A stretch of DNA of 64,000 nt from an uncultured Phycisphaerales bacterium. Its GTDB lineage: Bacteria > Planctomycetota > Phycisphaerae > Tepidisphaerales > Tepidisphaeraceae. The notes below the pieces were generated by a model, which worked only from the letters and a program-made list of their open reading frames with translations, ran no database searches and was not told where the DNA came from. Below are positions 12,806-27,119 of this stretch, one piece after another. A program made the position numbers and the translations under genes. The DNA lies in contig CAWJPJ010000005.1 of NCBI GenBank assembly GCA_963844715.1, positions 256,001 to 320,000 on the forward strand. Direction: 5' to 3'. How positions within the stretch are numbered: position 1 is the first letter of the stretch; every line of letters begins with the position of its first letter.

Positions 12806-14302
12806 CTATCCGTGTTTCAGCACCGAGTCGCCAGTGCCGAAGTATACGCCGCCGATGTTATGGCCATTGGCGTAGAAGCTGATGTGAGGCCAGCCTTCGC
12901 ATCGCATCGGGAGAATGAGGGTGAACGTGCCTTGGCCTTTGGGGAGGTCGGCGGAGGATTGACATCGCTGCGTGTCGCTGATCCCGTCATTTTGATTTTT
13001 GGCGGTAACGAAAACGGCCATTGTCGCGGAGTCGGTTGAACCCAATTGGTAGGTTCCTTTGATTTGATAGACGTTGCCGGGACTGATGGTGCCGGAGGTG
13101 CCGCGGACCTCGGTGATGGCGATGTTGTCACCGGCGGCGAACTCGGTCAGACCGAGCTCAAAGGGGACGGATTGACCGAAGACCGCGGGAATGGGGAGCG
13201 GAGGATGGCGTTTATCGAAATCGGCAGCCGCGATGAGTTGGGGGTTCAACGAATCGGGAGAGGGCGCGATTGCGGAGGAGGCGGCGGGGGAGGGCGCCGG
13301 CGGCAGCGTGGCAGCAGCGGGTTTCCCGGCGTTCGCGTACCAGACGCCGAGGCAAAATACGGAGATGAGCAGGCAGAGGACGCCGCCACCGACGAGGACG
13401 GCCAGGGAATTCCATCGGCTAATGTGCGTCATGAGGGATCTCCTTTTGTCGAGCAAGCCGCGGATGCGGGATTCCAAGTTCGATTTGGCGCCCACGATTC
13501 CGGGGGCGATGGAGTAGTCAGGCTGAACGCTGACGCATTGGGCGAAGGCGAACAACGTGGCCGCGTAATCGGCGGGGGCGGCGGCGTGCAGGACGTAATT
13601 ATCGCAGAGGTCCTCCCGGGAACGATCCAATTGACGATTGACGTAGTGCACGAGGGGGTGGAACCAGAAGATTGCCGCGAGGAATCGCTGGTAGAGACCG
13701 GTGAGGGGATCGTGACGAAGAGCGTGGGCGCATTCGTGGACGAGGACCTGAAGGCGACGATCTTGATGCGCTGCGTCGAGGAGAGATAAAGGGAGAATGA
13801 CTATGGGCCGAGCGAAACCTGTAGCGACTGGGACGGAGAGCTTTGGCGAGGAGTAAATTTTGGGAAGGCGACGGCCAAAGAAGTCTGACAGGCGAGTATC
13901 GGGCTCAACAGGGACGGAGTTGCGCCGTATTCGCCGGATATTTTGGAGACCGATTGCGAGGCGGAGGAGCATTGCCGCCGCGCCACCGACCCAAATGCCT
14001 GAAATAATGGCCGGGGAAAGCGCATAAGAGGTGGAGTGATCGGGAATCGGCGGAATGGGAGCGAAGTCGACTATGGCAATGACCTGGGTTTGGACGAAGT
14101 GTGCCGGGGCTGGTGCAGCGGAATGAACGATCAGGGTGTAGGCGTCGGACATCAGCAGGGGGGTGAAGCCGCAGGCAACGAGCGCGAAAAAGCAGATGGC
14201 GTGCCGAATAGCGGGGTGGCGGAGGGCGAAGCGAGACAGCAAAGCGGCGATGGAGAGGATGGCGGTGACCTGAACGAGGATTGCCATCGCGGCCGCATTC
14301 AT
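12806..14302 (-). CDS. BlaR1/MecR1-like M56 family metallopeptidase with non-PBP C-terminal domain
   Basis: N-terminal TM helices, 'VPVATGFARPIVILP', 'LVHECAHALRHD', 'FWFHPLV', 'REDLCD', 'LESRI'. Confidence 0.9.
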   Translation of the reverse strand: MNAAAMAILVQVTAILSIAALLSRFALRHPAIRHAICFFALVACGFTPLLMSDAYTLIVHSAAPAPAHFVQTQVIAIVDFAPIPPIPDHSTSYALSPAIISGIWVGGAAAMLLRLAIGLQNIRRIRRNSVPVEPDTRLSDFFGRRLPKIYSSPKLSVPVATGFARPIVILPLSLLDAAHQDRRLQVLVHECAHALRHDPLTGLYQRFLAAIFWFHPLVHYVNRQLDRSREDLCDNYVLHAAAPADYAATLFAFAQCVSVQPDYSIAPGIVGAKSNLESRIRGLLDKRRSLMTHISRWNSLAVLVGGGVLCLLISVFCLGVWYANAGKPAAATLPPAPSPAASSAIAPSPDSLNPQLIAAADFDKRHPPLPIPAVFGQSVPFELGLTEFAAGDNIAITEVRGTSGTISPGNVYQIKGTYQLGSTDSATMAVFVTAKNQNDGISDTQRCQSSADLPKGQGTFTLILPMRCEGWPHISFYANGHNIGGVYFGTGDSVLKHG

Positions 14303-14689
14303 CGTTGCTCCCGCCGGGCGTCATCTATGAGTTTTTGAATTCGTGCTGCCTCTTCGGGCGAGAGACGCCGGGAATCGAGCAGGCTCATGACGAGTCCGCT
14401 GGCCGAGCCGCCGAAGGCGCCGTCGAGGAGATCGGCGAGCAGCCCGGATTGGGCCAATTTTTTGGGTCGGGCTGCACGATAATAGAAGGCGTTGGCGTCG
14501 GCGCAGGGCGCGGAGCCAGCCGCGTTCGCTGAGACGAGCGAGCATGGTTTGGACGGTGTTTCTGGCGATGGGGCGGGTCTCAGCGAGGGCTTTCCAAACC
14601 TGGGCGACGCCGAGTTCGCCGCGTTCCCAAAAGAGATTCATGATCTCAATCTGGAAGGGGGTGAGGCGGGATTGGTGTGGCCTGGGCAT
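14299..14689 (-). CDS. BlaI/MecI/CopY family repressor, frameshifted (~14505)
   Basis: 'EIMNLFWERGE...ARNTVQTMLARLSERGWL', then in another frame 'FYYRAA...AFGGSASGLVMSLL'; stop overlaps the M56 start (ATGA). Confidence 0.9.
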
Positions 14690-18379: not shown

Positions 18380-19451
18380 ATGGCGATAACGCGCGAACAA
18401 GTTTTGGCGGCGCTGCGGACCGTGCAGGATCCCGAGCTTTTCCGCGACATCGTTTCGCTGAATATGGTCAAGGATATTCGGCTGGACGGAAATAATGTTT
18501 TCGTAAATGTCGAACTGACGACACCGGCCTGCCCGCTCAAGGAGAGAATCGAGCGCGAGGTGACCGCCGCGCTGAAAAGCGCGGGGGCGACAGAGGTGAC
18601 GCTCGAGCTTTCAGCAAATACACGGGGGGCGGTCGGCGCCAAGAAGGATGTGCTGCCCCAGGTGAAGAACGTGGTCGCGGTGGGGGCCGGGAAGGGCGGA
18701 GTCGGGAAATCGACGATCGCGGTGAATCTGGCCGTGGGCTTGCAGCTAGCCGGGGCGAAGGTGGGGCTGATGGACGGGGATATTTACGGCCCGTCGATGC
18801 CGACGATGCTGGGGCTGAAGGGCGCGACGCCGCAGGTGACCGGGTCGAAGATGATTCCGTTCTATGTGCACGGGATTCACGCGGTGACCATCGGATCGCT
18901 GGTCGAGCAGGACAAGCCGCTCATTTGGCGCGGCCCAATGGCGCATGGCGCGTTTCGGCAGTTGCTGATCGACAACACCCAGTGGCCGGAGCTGGATTAT
19001 TTGATCGTGGATTTGCCGCCCGGCACGGGGGATGTCCCGCTGACGTTGTGTCAGTTGCTCCCGCTGTCGGGAGCAGTCGTCGTCGCGACGCCGCAGCAAG
19101 TCAGCGCTGGATGACGCGGTTCGTGCGGTGCGAATGTTCCAGCAACTGGCGACGCCGGTGCTGGGGATCGTCGAGAATATGAGCTATTTCGTCGCCCCCG
19201 ACGGCAGCGGCCACGACCTGTTCGGCCGCGGCGGAGCGGAAAAGGCGGCGCAGCGACTGGGGCTGCCGTTCCTGGGGGCGCTGGGGATTTACACCGAGTT
19301 GCGGATCAACAGCGATGCGGGGGAGCCGGGCAAGAATTTTGCCGGAAACCCGGTGCTGAAGAATGAGCTGACGCGGATCGTGCAGAATCTGGCCGGGCAG
19401 ATCAGTTTGCGGAATCTAACGGAGCGGGGGCCGGAGTTGAATGTGACGTGA
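18380..19451 (+). CDS. mrp: Mrp/ApbC (NBP35 family) Fe-S cluster carrier ATPase, frameshifted (~19105)
   Basis: 'VQDPEL', 'LTTPACPLK', 'GKGGVGKST', 'DIYGPS', 'IWRGPM', 'DLPPGTGD', 'GIVENMSYF'. Confidence 0.93.
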
Positions 19452-19452
19452 A

Positions 19453-21064
19453 ATGATGAGACGGCGAATCGCACAGATCGCGGCGTTGGCGGTTTGGTGT
19501 ATCGGCGTCAGTGCATTTGGGCAGGCGTTATCCCACGAAGAGAAACTTGCGGCCGCGCAGAAGGTTTATGATCGAATTGTCCAGGCGATTGGCGACAGCC
19601 GTCCCCCGCCGCGGTTGCGCATGAAATCCAGCGTGCAGGTGGCCTGTTTCTGGCCGGATAAGAATGAGATCGATCTGGACGAGCGGGCGTTCGATCTCTG
19701 CGAGGCCCAGAGCGATCCCGATTCAGCGTTGTCGGTTTTGCTGGGCCATGAACTGGCGCATTGGTACGGCCATCACGGCTGGACCCGCGAGTTTGGGAAT
19801 TCGGTGCCAGCCGATTTGGCGGATCAGTTGCGCGTGCTCAACGCCCAGGACCAGATGCGCTGCGAAATGGAGGCGGATTATTTTGGGGGGTATTACGGGT
19901 ACTTGGCTGGCTTCAATACGCTTGGGGAATTTCCAAAACTGATCGAGGCGATTTATCGCAAATACCAGTCGATGCCGGGATATCCGACCTTGGACGAGCG
20001 CGAAGGGATCGCCCATCAGGCGGAGGAGAAACTGGATCGGCTGGTGCCGGTCTTCGAGGCCGGGAATCTGCTGCTGTCGATGCACCAGTTCGATTCAGCG
20101 GCGTTTTGCTTTGATACCATCGCGCAGGATTTCCCCAGCCGCGAAATTCTGAATAATGCTGGCGTGGCGCGGCGCAAGAGGCGACCGATTTGCTGCGCGG
20201 CGACGCGGAATTGGCGAAGTATGTTTATCCGTTCGAGCTTGATGCCGATACGCGACTCCGCCGCGATGATGTGCAAGCCCGGGGAATCGACGATGCGACG
20301 CGAAGACGCGCCTACGACCTGCTCATCGCGGCGGGCCGGGATTTCGACGACGCCAAGGCGAAGGACCCGGCCTACGCTCCCGCCTATGTGAATCTAGCCG
20401 GAGTTTACGATTTGCTCGGCGAAGAAGACCTCGCCGCCGCCTTCGCCGAAAAGGCCGGACGCGTCGCGGCCGAGTCACACGATGACCTAAGCGCCGAAGA
20501 TGCGAATATCATAATCGCCATCGTCCGGGCCCGTCAGAATCAAACCAAAGAGGCCGAGGCGATCCTTCAGGTCTGCCAAACCGATTTGGCGCGGATGAAT
20601 TTGGACATCTTGCGCGGAGGGTCCGCGCCGGCGGCCAATGCGCCAGTGGATGCGCCGGACCGGCGACTCAACCCGCGCCCGAATCCATCGCAGGGGCCGC
20701 GGCCAATGATGAGAATCCGATGGACGATCCGCCCTATGACACGATCAATCTCACGAACCTGGACAACGATCAGGCGGATGTAAGCATCCGGTCGAAGCAA
20801 ACCGATTCGTGGTCGGGATATTTAATTCAATTGGGCGATCGCGAGATCATCGCCTATCAAACCGCCGCGAATTTTAGGGGGAAGACTGCAAAGGGCGTGG
20901 GGGCGGGGGATAGTTTGCAGAAAGTCGAGGCGGCGTATGGGGAGCCGACCGATGTGATCCCGGGGAGGCAGGGGAACTCGTATCGGTTTAGCGGCAGCGG
21001 GATAATCTTTGAATTGGGGGCCGATGGAAAAGTGAGGGGGTGGGTGGTGTATTCGCCGCACTAG
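19453..21064 (+). CDS. Secreted M48-like HExxH metallopeptidase-domain/TPR protein, frameshifted over three ORFs
   Basis: Signal peptide; 'VLLGHELAHWY', 'EMEADYFG', 'YPTLDER'; TPR-like 'APAYVNLAGVYDLLG'; C-terminal 'GVGAGDSLQKVEAAYGEP' domain (ORFs 19453..20391, 20190..20783, 20720..21064). Confidence 0.7.
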
Positions 21065-21074
21065 CGAAGTGATT

Positions 21075-21455
21075 TCAGAACTCCGCTTGCGGGTCCACGA
21101 GAGAAAGCGTTCGCAAGGTTACCTCGTCGAGAACTTCGCGAGGACATCTGGCAATGAACTGCATCGATCGTTCGCGGTAGTCAAGCTGGCGCAATGCGTC
21201 GGCAAGGATTACGGAATCGACGTCGCCGACACCGGCTTTAGGGGGAAGTTGCCCCGTGGGTAATTTGACTTCAAAGGGCCCCCCGCGCACGCGAGAGGTG
21301 ATTCCGACGCATACCGTCATACCGCTGGCGTGATTGTAGGATTTTGAACTGAGGACCAAAGCGTAATGAGGGCCCGTCAATTCGCGACCGGCGGAAGGGC
21401 TGAGATTGACATGAACGAGGTCGCCCCGATCAGGCGTGTAGGTCATGCGGGCCAT
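21075..21455 (-). CDS. mazF: MazF/PemK family toxin
   Basis: 'PDRGDLVHVNLSPSAGRELTGPHYALVLS', 'ITS', 'SVILADALRQLDYRER'. Confidence 0.9.
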   Translation of the reverse strand: MARMTYTPDRGDLVHVNLSPSAGRELTGPHYALVLSSKSYNHASGMTVCVGITSRVRGGPFEVKLPTGQLPPKAGVGDVDSVILADALRQLDYRERSMQFIARCPREVLDEVTLRTLSLVDPQAEF

Positions 21456-21691
21456 CAGAGAATTTCCTTGCCGATGGGACCGCTTGAGTCCCACTCGCCC
21501 TGACGGTGAGACCGCTTGTATCCGGCGACGAGTTCGGAAAGCGTATAGCGCCGCCGCTTTGATTTGACGACCTCGATCTTCTCCAGATCGAGAACGGTTC
21601 CAACATTGATATCGCGCATCTTGGCGAATTGGCTCGGGATCAACAGGGCCATGCTGCTGCCCCATTTTTTTACTTTTACGGGCGTCGCCAT
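21455..21691 (-). CDS. mazE: AbrB/MazE family antitoxin
   Basis: 'VKKWGSSMALLIP', 'RYTLSELV', C-terminal 'GPIGKEIL'; stop overlaps the toxin start. Confidence 0.9.
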   Translation of the reverse strand: MATPVKVKKWGSSMALLIPSQFAKMRDINVGTVLDLEKIEVVKSKRRRYTLSELVAGYKRSHRQGEWDSSGPIGKEIL

Positions 21692-21766
21692 CGGGTGCAC
21701 CTCCACAAAGTGATACAAAATGATATCATAAGAATCGGCCCGTTTCAAGCTGAAGTTGAGGAGGAA

Positions 21767-23841
21767 TTACTGTCCGACCGTTTTCGGAATAAAAAGAAAC
21801 TGCCCCACATCGTCATCAGAATCGGGCAACGCTCTTAAATACTGCGGCGTCAGATCGTGGTAACCCGGAATCGGCAGATTGTGGGCTTCCTGCGAGACCA
21901 CGTCGTGCAGGTATTTATAGAGTTCGTCGTCGGTGACGATGCCGTCGTGGTTGGCGTCGGCGGGCATAAAACCTGAGGCGTCGGGCGTGAGGGCACGAAT
22001 GAGATTGCTGGTGAAGAGAGCTTTTCGCCCGTCATCCCAGCTTTGCTGGTTGGCGGTTCCGGCGGTGATGACGATGCGGGCTTTTTCCTTCCACATGGAA
22101 TAGATGGCGGAGATATCGGCAGGCAAGCCGCCGCGCGAAGAGGTGACGAAGCCGCTGTAGCAGCAATCGACGAGCGTGATCTGGTGGCTGGAGACGACCC
22201 GGTGGCTGATGAAGTTGATGAGGTAGCTCATGTCGAATCCGGTGTCGTCGGCGTCCGTGGGTTTGTATCCGGAGAGGACGAGGTACCCGATCTTGGGTTG
22301 CCCGGCGACTTCGCGCGGGTCCCCGTGGCCGCCGTAGAAGAAGACGAAATTGGTCCGGTTTCCGTCGGGGTAACGGGCGGTTATCCCGCCGATGTCGTTG
22401 ATGGCTTGCTCGAGGGCGATTTTCGTCGAGGGGCCGTCCGCGGCGATATTCGGATCGTCAGGATCAGTCGGGTCTGGGGGACGATCGGTCAACAGCCGCA
22501 TGTTTTTGGGGTCGAAGCCGTAGACGTCGCGAAGGAGCACGTAAAACTGCCTCGCCGTTCGGCAGGAATTCTGTAGGGCCGGGAAATCACCCTGGGGTTC
22601 GCCGACGCCGACGATGACGGCATAGCCCGGCACGTGGATGCCCTGGGAGCGGAGATCCTGGATCAGCTGGCCCGAAAGGACCGAGCCTCGCGCCTGGAAA
22701 TCCACGGGGGAAGATTCATCGGCGCGGGTGACGGGGGCCTCATTCATCGGGGACCGAGAGGAGACCTGCTGCCGATTGAGATGAGTGGTGAGTATCGAGG
22801 CGATAACCGTGACCATCACCGTAACGAACCCGGTCCCCGCGATGGCGGCGACACGCTTGGCGACCTTCTTGCGAACGTCGAAAGCCGGACGCCCTTTGCC
22901 CCATTTGCGAATAATGGACTGGATTTCGGCGCTGGTGAGCTTCGTGCCCGCGCGGGCGCGGCGACGAGCGTATAACCGAAGGGAGCGCCGTCGAACCAGG
23001 GATCTTTAACGGCGTCGGGATTCTTCGCGACCTCGGCGGCTTGAAGCGCGCTGTCCAGGTCCTTGATGGGAAGTCTTTGTATCGGGTCGGTCGAAATCAC
23101 CCAATTGCCTTTTCCCCAATCGACGACAAGCAGGAGATACGACCCGCCGGCCGGAGCCGAGGTGTCGCGGCGGCTCCAATATTTCCAGAGCAGGCTCTTA
23201 GGCTGCTCGAGGAGAAGCATGGAACTGGTCGGCGGACCCCCAGGGAGTTGGACAACCCATTGCTGGCCCCGGCGGACGTCCTCGTGGTAGACGGTTTCGT
23301 CCTTTTTCAGAAAAGCTCGTTCGCGGGCGAATTGGGACGATTCGCTGAACAGATTGGTGACGAAGGGGTCTTTGTCGGCGTCGGCGGCGCGGAGAATGAT
23401 TTGTGCGACGCGGTCCCAGTCTTCCAGGAATTTGGAGGCCGCGAATTGGTCGGTGAGGTCTTCGGCGCCGTTGTTGCGAATGGCGAGGAATAACCCTTCC
23501 ATGGAGCAATCGAGAGGCATGTCGCCCGGCTGGAGGCCCTCGCGCGCCAGCGCCGCGTATTTGGCGAACGTGGCCGCGCCGGCTGGGAGGCCCGCTCCTT
23601 CGACCAGCCGCTGGATGAAGGACGCGGCCAGCATGTCGTCGAGAGTCGGGCGCGTCGTGTCGCACGGCACGACGATGCGCTTCAGCGGGCCAGTCCCCTG
23701 GACGAAATCGGGCAGGCCGTGCGAGACGACTAAGGCGGCAAGATCGCGGCGCTGTGCATCGGACCCTTTGGGAAGAATGAAAATTTCGCCTGCGGGTGCG
23801 GCGTCCTCAGCGGGAAGTTTGTCTCGAAATACAATCTCCAT
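21767..23841 (-). CDS. Membrane-anchored caspase-family (peptidase C14) protein with ~310-aa N-terminal domain; one frameshift ~22955
   Basis: C14 motifs 'AVIVGV', 'FVFFYGGHG' (His), 'LVDCCYSG' (Cys), 'LFTSNLIRAL', 'ADANHDGIVT'; TM 'VAAIAGTGFVTVMVTVIASIL' links ORFs 22816..23916 and 21767..22819. Confidence 0.8.
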
Positions 23842-24440: not shown

Positions 24441-24707
24441 ATGTCTCGCGACGCAACAATCAACGTCTCTTTAACTCCCAAGCAATTGCGGCTGCTGCGC
24501 GAGCGCGTCGAATCGGGCGACTACACGTCGGCGAGCGAGGTCGTCCGCGAGGGGTTGCGGATGCTTTTTCAAAAAAATCGTCTCGGCGTACGTACGCCTC
24601 CTGGGAAACTTCGGCGGCAATTGGAAGCGGGTTATCGGGCGACTGCGAATCGGGATCGTAAATTGGCCAAAGAATGGGAAAGACTTCCAGGCGCATGGCC
24701 AAAGTAG
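24441..24707 (+). CDS. Ribbon-helix-helix (ParD-like) antitoxin
   Basis: 'INVSLTP...VESGDYTSASEVVREGLR'; overlaps the downstream toxin. Confidence 0.85.
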   Translation: MSRDATINVSLTPKQLRLLRERVESGDYTSASEVVREGLRMLFQKNRLGVRTPPGKLRRQLEAGYRATANRDRKLAKEWERLPGAWPK

Positions 24708-25063
24708 ACTATCCCCACCGGGGCGAAATCTGGGTGGTGCGATTCGACCCCGCGGTCGGCGCTGAAATTCAAAAGACGCGACCCGCTCTCGTCATTCAAA
24801 ACAATGTGGGCAATCGGGTTTCGCCAATCACAATAGTGGCGGCGATAATGTCGTCGCGGCATCGCGTTTACCCGGTCGAGGTTTACCTGCCATCCGGCGA
24901 GGGAGGTCTCGATGCCGACTCGATTGTCATGTTAAACCATATTCGGTCCGTCGACCGGAAACGGCTTATGCGACGATTAGGCAGCGTATCCGAGGAAACG
25001 ATGAAGTCGGTGGATCAAGCGATTCTGATCAGCCTGGGCGTCGATCTGTCGAGATTGGCTTAG
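24695..25063 (+). CDS. mazF: MazF/PemK family toxin
   Basis: 'RGEIWVVRFDPAVGAEIQKTRPALVIQNN', 'IRSVDRKRL'. Confidence 0.92.
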   Translation: MAKVDYPHRGEIWVVRFDPAVGAEIQKTRPALVIQNNVGNRVSPITIVAAIMSSRHRVYPVEVYLPSGEGGLDADSIVMLNHIRSVDRKRLMRRLGSVSEETMKSVDQAILISLGVDLSRLA

Positions 25064-25084: not shown

Positions 25085-26972
25085 TCAGGGAGCTTGCGTC
25101 GCGGCCAAGGCGCTTTTGATGGCGGCTTGCAGTCCGTCGTTTATCGGGCCTTGCGGGGATTGCACGATCACATCGTCGAGTTCGATTGAATTGTTTGGCA
25201 GCGCAGATTGCGGCGGCGCATTGCTCGTCTGCGTGAATTGCAAAGCCCATTCCTTCCCCTCGGCAACGCACACGACATTTATCGCCGGGTCGGATTGATC
25301 ATTTGTGCCGGCATCGGTCACGTATTGCATGGATTTAATTTTGATTCCGAAAAGCGTGAGCCGCGAAACCCGGCAGGCGAATTCGTCGAAGGGTTGGAAG
25401 CTGTAAATGCCCGGATAAGGGTCGCCCGCGGCGTTTTTTATTGCGAAGACGGTCTGGCCCCATGTGCGGTACTTGATGCCGGAGCCGGCGCGCCACCGTG
25501 CCAGATCATCGGGGTTGGCAGTGACGTTGATCGTGACGACGTGGAATTCCTTGCCGTCATCTTCGTAGTAGCCGGTGTCCACTTTGCGGATGGCGTCCGT
25601 GATGTGGAGGCGGTCGCGAAGCCGCGCGACGGTGCTTGTGGAGGACCAATCGAGACGAACCAGCGGCCGACCGCTAAGGCGCAGGGCATCCAGGTATTGG
25701 AGACCCGGATCGTCCGCGATGGCGCGGGCCGCGGCAATTTGGACGGCGGGAGCTCCGGTCGCCTGGACGACGATTGAGCCGATCGCGTAGGCGAAGTTTT
25801 CCTCCGTGTCGGAGCACAGGGCATCGCGCAATTGCTTGGCGGAGTCCTCGCTTGAACAGGTCATCATGCTCACGCCCCCGTCCTCCAGACTGATGCGAGT
25901 GATCCGCCGAACCACCGATCGCAATTCTGCCTGCGAATCATCGACCGGCAGTTGGGCGATGGCATCGGAGAGATCTTTCCCGTCGAGCGGAGAGATTTTT
26001 TGGACAGTTATGTCGGCGTCGCTTTTCAAGGCGGCGAACATTTGCTGCTCGGTGAGCGCACTGGAATCCGGCGCGGGGGTGGCGACGGACGCGCCAGAGA
26101 GATCTAGAGAGGCCGCGGGAGTGGGGACGGCGGTTTGAACGATCGGCGCGGCGGAGGCCGTGATGGACTTGACGATTCGAATCGCCGCCGGCACGGTCGG
26201 CACAGCCACGGCGGCGGCGGTAAGTAGGATCGCGGCAATTTTTATATGAGCCCACGCCATGGCGCATCCCGGCTTTATGAGCGACGGCTGCGGCGAATGC
26301 GCCCTTGGCGACGGCACCGCCGGAAGCGGTAATCAGATGAACCAGATGAATTGGCGCCGCTTGGGTGCCGTGTTGGAGCAATTGCTCGCCGAGGAGGGCT
26401 GGCGCGGGGCTGGTTGCACCCAGGAGATTTCTCAGACGCTCCATTCCGCGTTCGACGCGTTTGCGGGCCGCGTCTTCGCCGATGCCGAGCGCGGCGCCAA
26501 CTTCACGTAAGTTCATGCCGCGCAAATATCGAAGGGCAATGGCATCGCGGTCATCGCGTTTGAGGCGCGAGAGCGCGGAGTCGAGCGAACCTTCGATATC
26601 TTCCCAGTTTTCGCGGTGGGAATTGGAGAGGATTTCTGATTTCATCTTCGCCGCCTGTTGCTCGTGGAAGGTTCGCCGCATCGTTAGTTTGATCGCGTTT
26701 TTGCAGCAGTAGTGAGTCGAGAGGAGGAGCCACCCGGCCAGGGGTCCGCGGATGGATGCCGCCTTGGTGGTCAGGAGAAGGAAGACCGCCTGGGTGATGT
26801 CTTCCGCTTGGTGCGCATCCCGGAGCTGCCGCCGGGCGGCGGAATAGACCAGGTCGGCATATCGATGCACCAATTCCGCAAACGCCTCCGAGGACCGGTT
26901 TTGGGCATATTGCCCCAAGAGCTGACGATCGTCAGGAGGGGCGGCCAACGATTGATCAGGAACTCGCGCCAT
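25085..26972 (-). CDS. ECF sigma factor with transmembrane segment and long C-terminal extension, frameshifted (~26265)
   Basis: Sigma2 'AFAELVHRYADLVYSAARR...AEDITQAVF', sigma4 'DRDAIALRYLRG...VGAALG...AARKRVERG'; continues through TM 'IKIAAILLTAAAVAV' into ORF 25085..26317. Confidence 0.85.
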
Positions 26973-27119
26973 ACATTGAATAATGTACCGCAAAATGGGG
27001 ATCGGACAGCGGTTTTGCGGGATTTTGGGCGTCCCGGAGACGGGGGAAAGGGAATACGATTTGCAATTGGCGACCGATAAATGAGTCGCCGCGGCGACAC
27101 GAATCGATAATCGAAAAGG

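Follow-up and report, generated by a model that had tools for sequence, protein, structure and literature searches.

We have analysed a 64,000-nucleotide stretch (the window) of the genome of a soil bacterium, a Tepidisphaeraceae planctomycete referred to below as G000. In it two convergent genes encode a membrane-anchored caspase (peptidase family C14) and a secreted M48-like zinc protease with tetratricopeptide repeats (the M48/TPR protein or partner). We propose that both belong to a transmembrane proteolytic signalling module of four to five genes, inherited together, whose putative parts are a receptor consisting of a DHH-like domain, a transmembrane (TM) helix and a C14 domain, the secreted M48/TPR protease, a secreted trypsin-PDZ protease, a cytoplasmic TPR-Ser/Thr kinase and an FHA-SpoIIE phosphatase. 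In the explanation we favour, to which we would give about an even chance, the caspase would cut at x-R↓G (the arrow marks the bond cut) in its own linker, in the loop that follows its catalytic Cys and in the BepA-like partner protease; the DHH-like domain and the kinase would provide the output, and the signal would preferably pass from the outside in. An earlier note on this DNA had proposed a two-step cascade; this description is too narrow, as the trypsin-PDZ protease and the kinase and phosphatase pair also appear to belong to the module. The finding thus seems to be real and larger than first noted, and points to regulated extracytoplasmic proteolysis with precise candidate cut sites.

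Conserved basic-small dipeptides in both proteins

The hexamer DxQARG, which the earlier note took to be a dedicated cleavage site, occurs in the caspase linker and in a loop of the partner. A six-frame translation of the G000 genome (9.1 million residues) contains it only 10 times, so that its presence in these two proteins is beyond chance. As a six-residue recognition site it was nevertheless rejected, since D.QARG is present in 0 of 88 partner loops and 0 of 138 loops of a second partner set; the loop of the orthologue in G002, a genome of the same genus, reads EVEARG, and in the partner neither D nor Q is conserved. The conserved element is [RK]-[GA], and the hexamer is a lucky extension of this shorter, real motif. 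What survives of the original suggestion is therefore the shared RG, which is conserved and lies in loops predicted to be flexible.

The first partner set comprises 88 non-redundant loops from 137, loops of fewer than 8 residues or at least 70% identical having been dropped. Within a fixed 12-residue window of the loop, [RK]-[GA] is found in 73 of the 88, compared with 29±4 (maximum 43) in within-loop shuffles and with 20% of background windows, and RG alone is found in 35 (11±3 when shuffled). Of 139 further proteins 138 had the loop, and [RK]-[GA] occurs in 96 of these (51±5 shuffled, maximum 69), although a few are shared with the loci described below and the set is not fully independent. 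In the M48/TPR clade closest to the window protein every loop contains xARG. On the caspase side, 33 of 49 linkers contain RG, compared with 15.0±2.9 (maximum 26) in 2000 shuffles. In an alignment (A2) of 62 of the 88 caspase homologues, plus or including the G002 protein, the linker motif has R in 50/62 and G in 49/62, with D in 30/62 and Q in 10/62. A further RG lies no more than 22 residues after the catalytic Cys in 27/49 caspases, a count made without a shuffle control. In the three shuffle tests (both partner sets and the caspase linker) the observed counts lie above all 2000 shuffles.

Models of the orthologous proteins suggest that these loops are accessible. The predicted local distance difference test score falls below 50 at residues 367-398 (linker) and 580-590 (post-Cys loop) of the caspase and at 278-288 of the M48/TPR protein, where R290-G291 is situated at the loop edge, and the RG loops are thus predicted to be flexible and exposed in both proteins.

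The caspase protein

The N-terminal part of the caspase protein (residues ~14-330, about 330 residues, with matches over model residues 7-333) has the two-domain DHH plus DHHA1 fold when compared by VIA-align. The matches are to PggH (Z 9.7, root mean square deviation (rmsd) of 4.5, 218 aligned), to NrN (Z 9.1) and to the DHH protein PF0399 (Z 8.6), which are moderate scores obtained with the whole-protein model. Atlas leads for this domain were the MYG1 and ChrB_C clusters, and a Pfam scan of it gave no match. The DxD and DHH metal motifs are not present: PTLDD replaces DxD, no His is conserved at 80% and there is no DHH triad, from which we infer a binding rather than a catalytic role. The same DHH-like domain is also found fused to Ser/Thr kinases, either before or after them (P0095, P0099, P0102, P0136 and P0138). 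There are in addition DHH-TM proteins that end in the linker and have no caspase (L005:613-1761 in G001, P0079, P0082 and P0087); these resemble the predicted cleavage stub.

The C14 domain scores above the Pfam cut-off for PF00656 (24.1 against 21.4 bits) and its model is metacaspase-like (Z 22.0, rmsd 2.6, 224 aligned to metacaspase 4). A PDB sequence search with the caspase returned nothing better than E 0.4, and no NCBIfam family scored over its cut-off, the EACC1-type caspase family NF047832 reaching 47.8 against a cut-off of 140. H517, D570 and C572 are invariant in 62/62 homologues and a further acidic residue, D/E614, is kept in 60/62. Presumably the Asp before the Cys and D/E614, together with an Asp in the first helix, belong to the S1 pocket. 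The acidic loop further on (Table 1) we take to be EF-hand-like and a possible calcium site.

Of the 88 caspase homologues, 69 have both domains in order and 49 remain as non-redundant at 70% identity; 48 of the 49 have a helix with a hydropathy of at least 1.6. The net charge is higher on the N-terminal side of this helix in 45/48 (mean K+R 5.4 versus 2.3), and the C14 domain is therefore predicted to face outward, as expected for the N-in/C-out arrangement proposed earlier.

The M48/TPR protein

The H, E, H, E and D residues of HExxH and ExxxD are invariant in 51/51 aligned M48/TPR homologues. The match to PF01435 (M48) lies under the Pfam cut-off (14.6 versus 20.3 bits), as do the TPR matches, and in the nearest Atlas clusters 12-40% of members carry PF01435. 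The family is large, with 1177 clusters at 50% identity (E up to 1e-30). The best Foldseek match is BepA of E. coli (E 9e-6), which has the M48-TPR architecture too, but the TM score is only 0.22; the structural alignment gave Z 13.8, rmsd 14.7 and 280 aligned residues. The window protein also differs from BepA in its extra C-terminal domain, for which a fold search gave no assignment because TPR matches filled the list, in its inserted RG loop, in its linkage to a caspase and in a YP that replaces HP in 49/51 homologues, HP being, we assume, the motif at that position in BepA. The HtrA-like trypsin-PDZ partner recalls the DegS/HtrA-RseA-RseP pathway which, like BepA, acts in E. coli envelope proteolysis.

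Linkage across genomes and loci

Three of 141 family genomes (G000, G002 and G072), the same three in each case, hold the M48/TPR protein, the full DHH-TM-caspase, the HtrA-like trypsin-PDZ protease and the TPR-kinase. G001, which is 90% complete, has only the DHH-TM stub and is without M48/TPR, trypsin-PDZ and kinase, and the C14 domains of G021 and G029 are unrelated. Of 401 genomes of the class, only G000 and G002 yielded M48/TPR; the caspase search across the class had a stricter initial pass and gives a lower bound, and a PF00656 family search, which missed the G000 gene itself, was excluded from the counts. The remaining part of the module in G000 is situated at C6:878762-884183 (L101:4380-9834), where the TPR-Ser/Thr kinase and FHA-SpoIIE phosphatase genes are divergent from trypsin-PDZ.

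Metagenomes extend this association. A C14 gene is present in the flank of 27/81 M48/TPR loci, a count that includes duplicates and many short loci, and C14 or CHAT is present in the flank of 18/36 non-redundant loci whose flank is 6 kb or longer (a further CHAT, by Pfam, is in L025), compared with a single C14 gene in the 4.55 Mb of G000. DHH-TM-caspase, trypsin-PDZ and M48/TPR are in one run in L024 and L095; in L023 trypsin-PDZ and M48/TPR are convergent with the caspase; and L052 has the same protease trio with a different caspase type. Seven proteins (P0030 and six more) are M48/TPR-C14 fusions, which are also seen in loci L028, L033 and L034. A genomic link between the families is thus borne out by operons, fusions and co-inheritance, but a fixed two-gene locus is not.

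It might be argued that the two window genes are unrelated and merely came to lie at a variable site beside mrp, RG being common in G+C-rich loops. Within-loop shuffles alone do give 29/88, the genes are unlinked in G002 and G072, the mrp-adjacent site varies among G000, G001 and G002, and mazEF sits between the two protease genes. Against this, the counts exceed every shuffle in the three tests, four genes have an identical pattern of presence and absence, and other lineages have operons and fusions, so that coincidence is already largely refuted and seems to us highly improbable.

The proportion of loci with a clan CD neighbour differs with the class of the partner loop: 12/17 for R-type loops, 4/8 for KG, 0/7 for KA and 2/4 for loops with no motif. 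In L026, L029, L030, L036, L038 and L045 the neighbours of KA-loop M48/TPR genes are not caspases but M6-like peptidase/FlgD-Ig and two-component propeller genes. When the P1 residues of the partner loop and the post-Cys loop were called by hand in 16 of 20 C14 loci (four being dropped as not callable), the pairs were R/R in 12, K/K in 3 and K/R in 1 (Fisher p 0.007, or about 0.02 by hand calculation if L069 is taken as a mismatch). K-type partner loops beside caspases with K-type post-Cys loops are counted here for the relay, but the co-variation, a check proposed at the outset, is suggestive only.

A scan of 78 of 161 candidate neighbour open reading frames, with hand-picked additions, found that other neighbours of M48/TPR include extracytoplasmic function (ECF) sigma factors, zf-HC2 anti-sigma factors, FecR, CHASE2, DUF4384, kinases, trypsin and papain-like proteases, which suggests that such loci are a wider family of signalling loci. 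L035, L036, L039, L050, L078, L084, L092 and L098 hold ECF sigma and zf-HC2 anti-sigma, FecR, DUF4384, trypsin, kinase or TPR-CHAT genes. No cognate sigma factor was found in L023, L024 or L095 or beside the G002 genes. The longest contig listed for both P0005 (M48/TPR) and P0062 (caspase orthologue) is 405326 bases, perhaps one and the same contig.

The locus, its reading frames and neighbouring genes

In the window assembly the plus-strand M48/TPR gene is spread across three frames and the minus-strand caspase gene across two, owing to single-base indels at 20170 and 20654 (M48/TPR) and 22953 (caspase); another lies at 19102 in the neighbouring mrp. Short-read contigs from a near-identical organism have one base more at 20170, 20654 and 22953 and one base less at 19102, in a comparison with single contigs of depth 2-4 from one study, possibly of the source sample. 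The frameshifts in both protease genes are assembly indels, and pseudogenes are ruled out, since the short-read contigs are without the indels. This assembly has many single-base indels, and a broken gene in the genome should not be taken for a pseudogene; the kinase and trypsin genes at C6:878762-884183 are also frameshifted. With X placed at the breaks the frames read 537 and 691 residues, in agreement with the intact G002 orthologues of 547 (M48/TPR) and 702 (caspase) residues.

The repair that the earlier note had called for thus succeeded, and its positions for DVQARG, DFQARG, HELAH, EMEAD, GGHG, DCCYSG and RKKVAKR are correct (Table 1). Its caspase was rightly given a catalytic dyad and a TM helix, but the DHH/DHHA1-like domain and the post-Cys SSRG were omitted. 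Both genes of its pair are present, although they are not directly adjacent, as a mazE-mazF pair occupies 21075-21691 (minus strand), directly downstream of the caspase gene and on the same strand.

Table 1. Features of the protease locus, in positions of the window
Feature	Position	Strand	Remarks
BepA-like M48 zinc protease / TPR / C-terminal alpha-beta domain protein, 537 residues	19453..21064	+	two assembly indels read through
Probable Sec signal peptide	19453..19521	+	basic n-region, hydrophobic core, AFG↓Q; read from sequence
Zinc site	19747..19878	+	HELAH (19747-19761), third-ligand EMEAD (19864-19878)
YPFELDxxTRL anchor (conserved), then variable loop	20226..20285	+	loop holds DVQARG (20268-20285), candidate R↓G cut site
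mazF (PemK-family toxin)	21075..21455	-	PF02452, E 6.7e-19; between the two protease genes
mazE antitoxin	21455..21691	-	PF04014, E 0.002, under cut-off
DHH/DHHA1-like domain - TM helix - C14 caspase, 691 residues	21767..23841	-	read through one assembly indel (22953)
Cytoplasmic (predicted) DHH/DHHA1-like domain, no DHH triad	22874..23841	-	fold comparison, VIA-align
PTLDD motif in DHH/DHHA1-like domain	23635-23649	-	in place of DxD
Basic stretch RKKVAKR	22853-22873	-	followed by hydrophobic helix
Transmembrane helix, N-in/C-out (predicted)	22790-22852	-	positive-inside count over homologues
DFQARG, linker between membrane helix and caspase domain	22685..22702	-	candidate shedding site
First caspase-domain helix LQNSCRTA	22553..22576	-	Thr where metacaspases have Asp
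Catalytic dyad	22151..22333	-	His in GGHG (22322-22333), Cys in DCCYSG (22151-22168)
SSRG after catalytic Cys	22130..22141	-	second candidate self-processing site
Acidic loop DANHDGIVTDDEL	21920..21958	-	pattern read from sequence; partly conserved in A2

The mazEF pair was rejected as an unlikely part of the module, as it is missing from the L023, L024, L095 and G002 loci. It is one of two PemK/MazF-type toxin-antitoxin pairs less than 3 kb from the caspase gene, the other being at 24441-25063 (plus strand). Elsewhere in the window there is a BlaI/BlaR1 (M56) pair at 12806-14689 (minus strand), and an ECF sigma factor at 25085-26993 (minus strand) whose frame overlaps a downstream open reading frame and is probably another frameshifted fusion. 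The genes that flank the protease pair are housekeeping genes (lepB, mrp and UPF0047).

These surroundings bear on an explanation in which the flow is reversed: the dead DHH/DHHA1-like domain would bind a nucleotide in the cytoplasm (pAp, pGpG, a short RNA or a product of cyclic dinucleotide breakdown), dimerise the receptor and so fire a periplasmic caspase-M48 cascade with an anti-phage or suicide role. A DHH/DHHA1 fold without its triad fits such binding, type IV Thoeris includes C14 enzymes that are activated by nucleotides (10.1101/2024.10.24.620036), the spread is patchy (3/141 genomes), two toxin-antitoxin pairs lie close by, and nSTAND2 genes adjoin M48/TPR in L030 and L034. However, PADLOC on the locus gave weak capP (E 5.5e-4) and caspase (E 2.9e-5) matches only and no known defence model, the flanking genes are of the housekeeping kind, and the anti-sigma, FecR and CHASE2 genes at other M48/TPR loci typify outside-in signalling. 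We consider this reversed flow unlikely as a full account; on the direction of flow alone, we lean somewhat towards outside-in over inside-out.

Relation to known systems

A literature search without most subscription papers or any supplementary survey tables found no publication on this architecture, module or motif, and the terms DHH, M48 and periplasm have zero occurrences in the main text of PMC8195603; the module appears undescribed. The closest likeness is to DdvA-DdvS of Myxococcus xanthus, where DdvA is a single-pass anti-sigma factor with a periplasmic TPR-CHAT protease, for which a cut in its own linker has been proposed, not shown (PMC11506125). Like DdvA, the window caspase is predicted to cross the membrane once and to have a His-Cys protease of clan CD on the outside, a flexible linker to the helix as its proposed self-cut site and an output domain in the cytoplasm. 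It differs in that its protease is C14 rather than TPR-CHAT (there is no CHAT in G000), its inside domain is DHH/DHHA1-like with no linked sigma factor rather than a zinc anti-sigma, its TPRs are on a separate M48 protease and its linker has a conserved RG.

Non-caspase C14 enzymes cut after Arg/Lys and the orthocaspase MaOC1 self-processes, although an intact dyad is not proof of C14 activity (PMC5756287). The window caspase shares the C14 fold and dyad with MaOC1, whose self-processing at Arg provides a model for the two RG self sites (PMC5756287), but it is predicted to lie outside the membrane, has Thr for the helix-1 Asp and has a conserved candidate substrate in trans. The caspase of type IV Thoeris is specific for Arg and slightly favours small neighbouring residues, and one mapped site in EF-Tu ends in EEKAR (10.1101/2024.10.24.620036). 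This enzyme and PCaspase are, like ours, bacterial C14 proteases, and they are Arg-specific and signal-switched, as we propose for ours, but they are cytoplasmic and promiscuous, and no TIR, SAVED-CHAT or CRISPR link was seen here. At the EF-Tu site Gly reportedly follows EEKAR. A further likeness is to protease-effector zymogen modules (MBL, alpha/beta-hydrolase and Pepco as well as EACC1), in which a protease gene neighbours that of a partner whose cut loop is conserved and cleavage unlocks the partner (10.1101/2025.11.14.688446); here, however, the partner is a secreted zinc protease, and none of those effector domains was seen.

A model for an extracytoplasmic relay

That the caspase may cut both proteins is supported by the conservation of RG above shuffles, the unstructured loops, the outward topology, co-inheritance, operons and fusions. 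In the relay we propose, periplasmic proteases would sense envelope damage or attack, and the caspase, activated by dimerisation and/or calcium, would cut exposed small-R↓G loops on the C-terminal side of their basic residue, with x-[RK]↓[GA] as the code. Cleavage after the catalytic Cys would mature the caspase, cleavage in its own linker would shed it from the membrane, and cleavage in the M48/TPR loop would unlock or remodel the BepA-like protease. Once the ectodomain is shed, the DHH-like-TM stub would be open to further processing, and the signal would pass by way of the DHH-like domain to the TPR-kinase/FHA-SpoIIE phosphatase pair, an output link that the kinase fusions of this domain suggest.

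Several observations weigh against this relay. RG is missing from 16/49 caspase linkers, and no conserved RG was found in the trypsin-PDZ protein. Strict adjacency had to be rejected, M48/TPR and caspase being on different contigs in G002 and G072, and the three genomes in which the genes co-occur are kin (two genera) and may represent one acquisition. The P1 co-variation depends on residues called by hand and includes three K/K loci that look related. The KA-type loops, with their 0/7 clan CD neighbours, indicate that the loop can be kept where no caspase is linked to it. Finally, the helix-1 position that aligns to the CVND of Arabidopsis metacaspase 4 is Asp in 50/62 homologues but Thr/Ser in the 10 closest, and Thr in the window caspase; the case for Arg specificity is weakened because one Asp of the S1 pocket is thus Thr in the window clade.

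The last two points would also suit an explanation in which there is one functional module but the caspase does not cut the partner, because its specificity is weak or altered or because it is a scaffold, the RG loops being docking motifs or being cut by M48 itself, by trypsin-PDZ or by an unlinked enzyme. The natural DHH-TM proteins without a caspase are consistent with this, as is the caution in PMC5756287 about intact dyads. The invariance of the His, the Cys and the Asp before it and the near invariance of the further acidic residue argue otherwise, as does the retention of RG at both self sites in the Thr clade. Searches of G000, G001, G002 and G072 found neither CHAT nor C11 as alternative users of the sites, and no other Arg-specific clan CD family was found in these genomes, the C25 search having been made without a positive control. 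We think it somewhat unlikely that the caspase leaves the partner uncut, and retain the relay as our preferred explanation.

A still broader proposal is that bacteria of several phyla have an extracytoplasmic caspase network with the code small-[RK]↓[GA], in which M48/TPR proteins would be caspase-activated zymogens, and that planctomycetes connect this network, through the DHH-like-TM-caspase receptor in the membrane, to a Ser/Thr kinase, so that three proteases (Cys, Zn and Ser) form a cascade outside the cell. We regard this as possible but rather doubtful.

Significance

Natural and specific substrates have been described mainly for those bacterial caspases that act in cytoplasmic defence modules, and DdvA, the one periplasmic clan CD receptor studied structurally, has no demonstrated trigger or cut site. 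The module described here gives three exact candidate cut sites and a partner family of more than 1000 clusters. Its sequence code could predict caspase substrates from genomes, and extracytoplasmic caspase signalling would become directly testable with two recombinant proteins.

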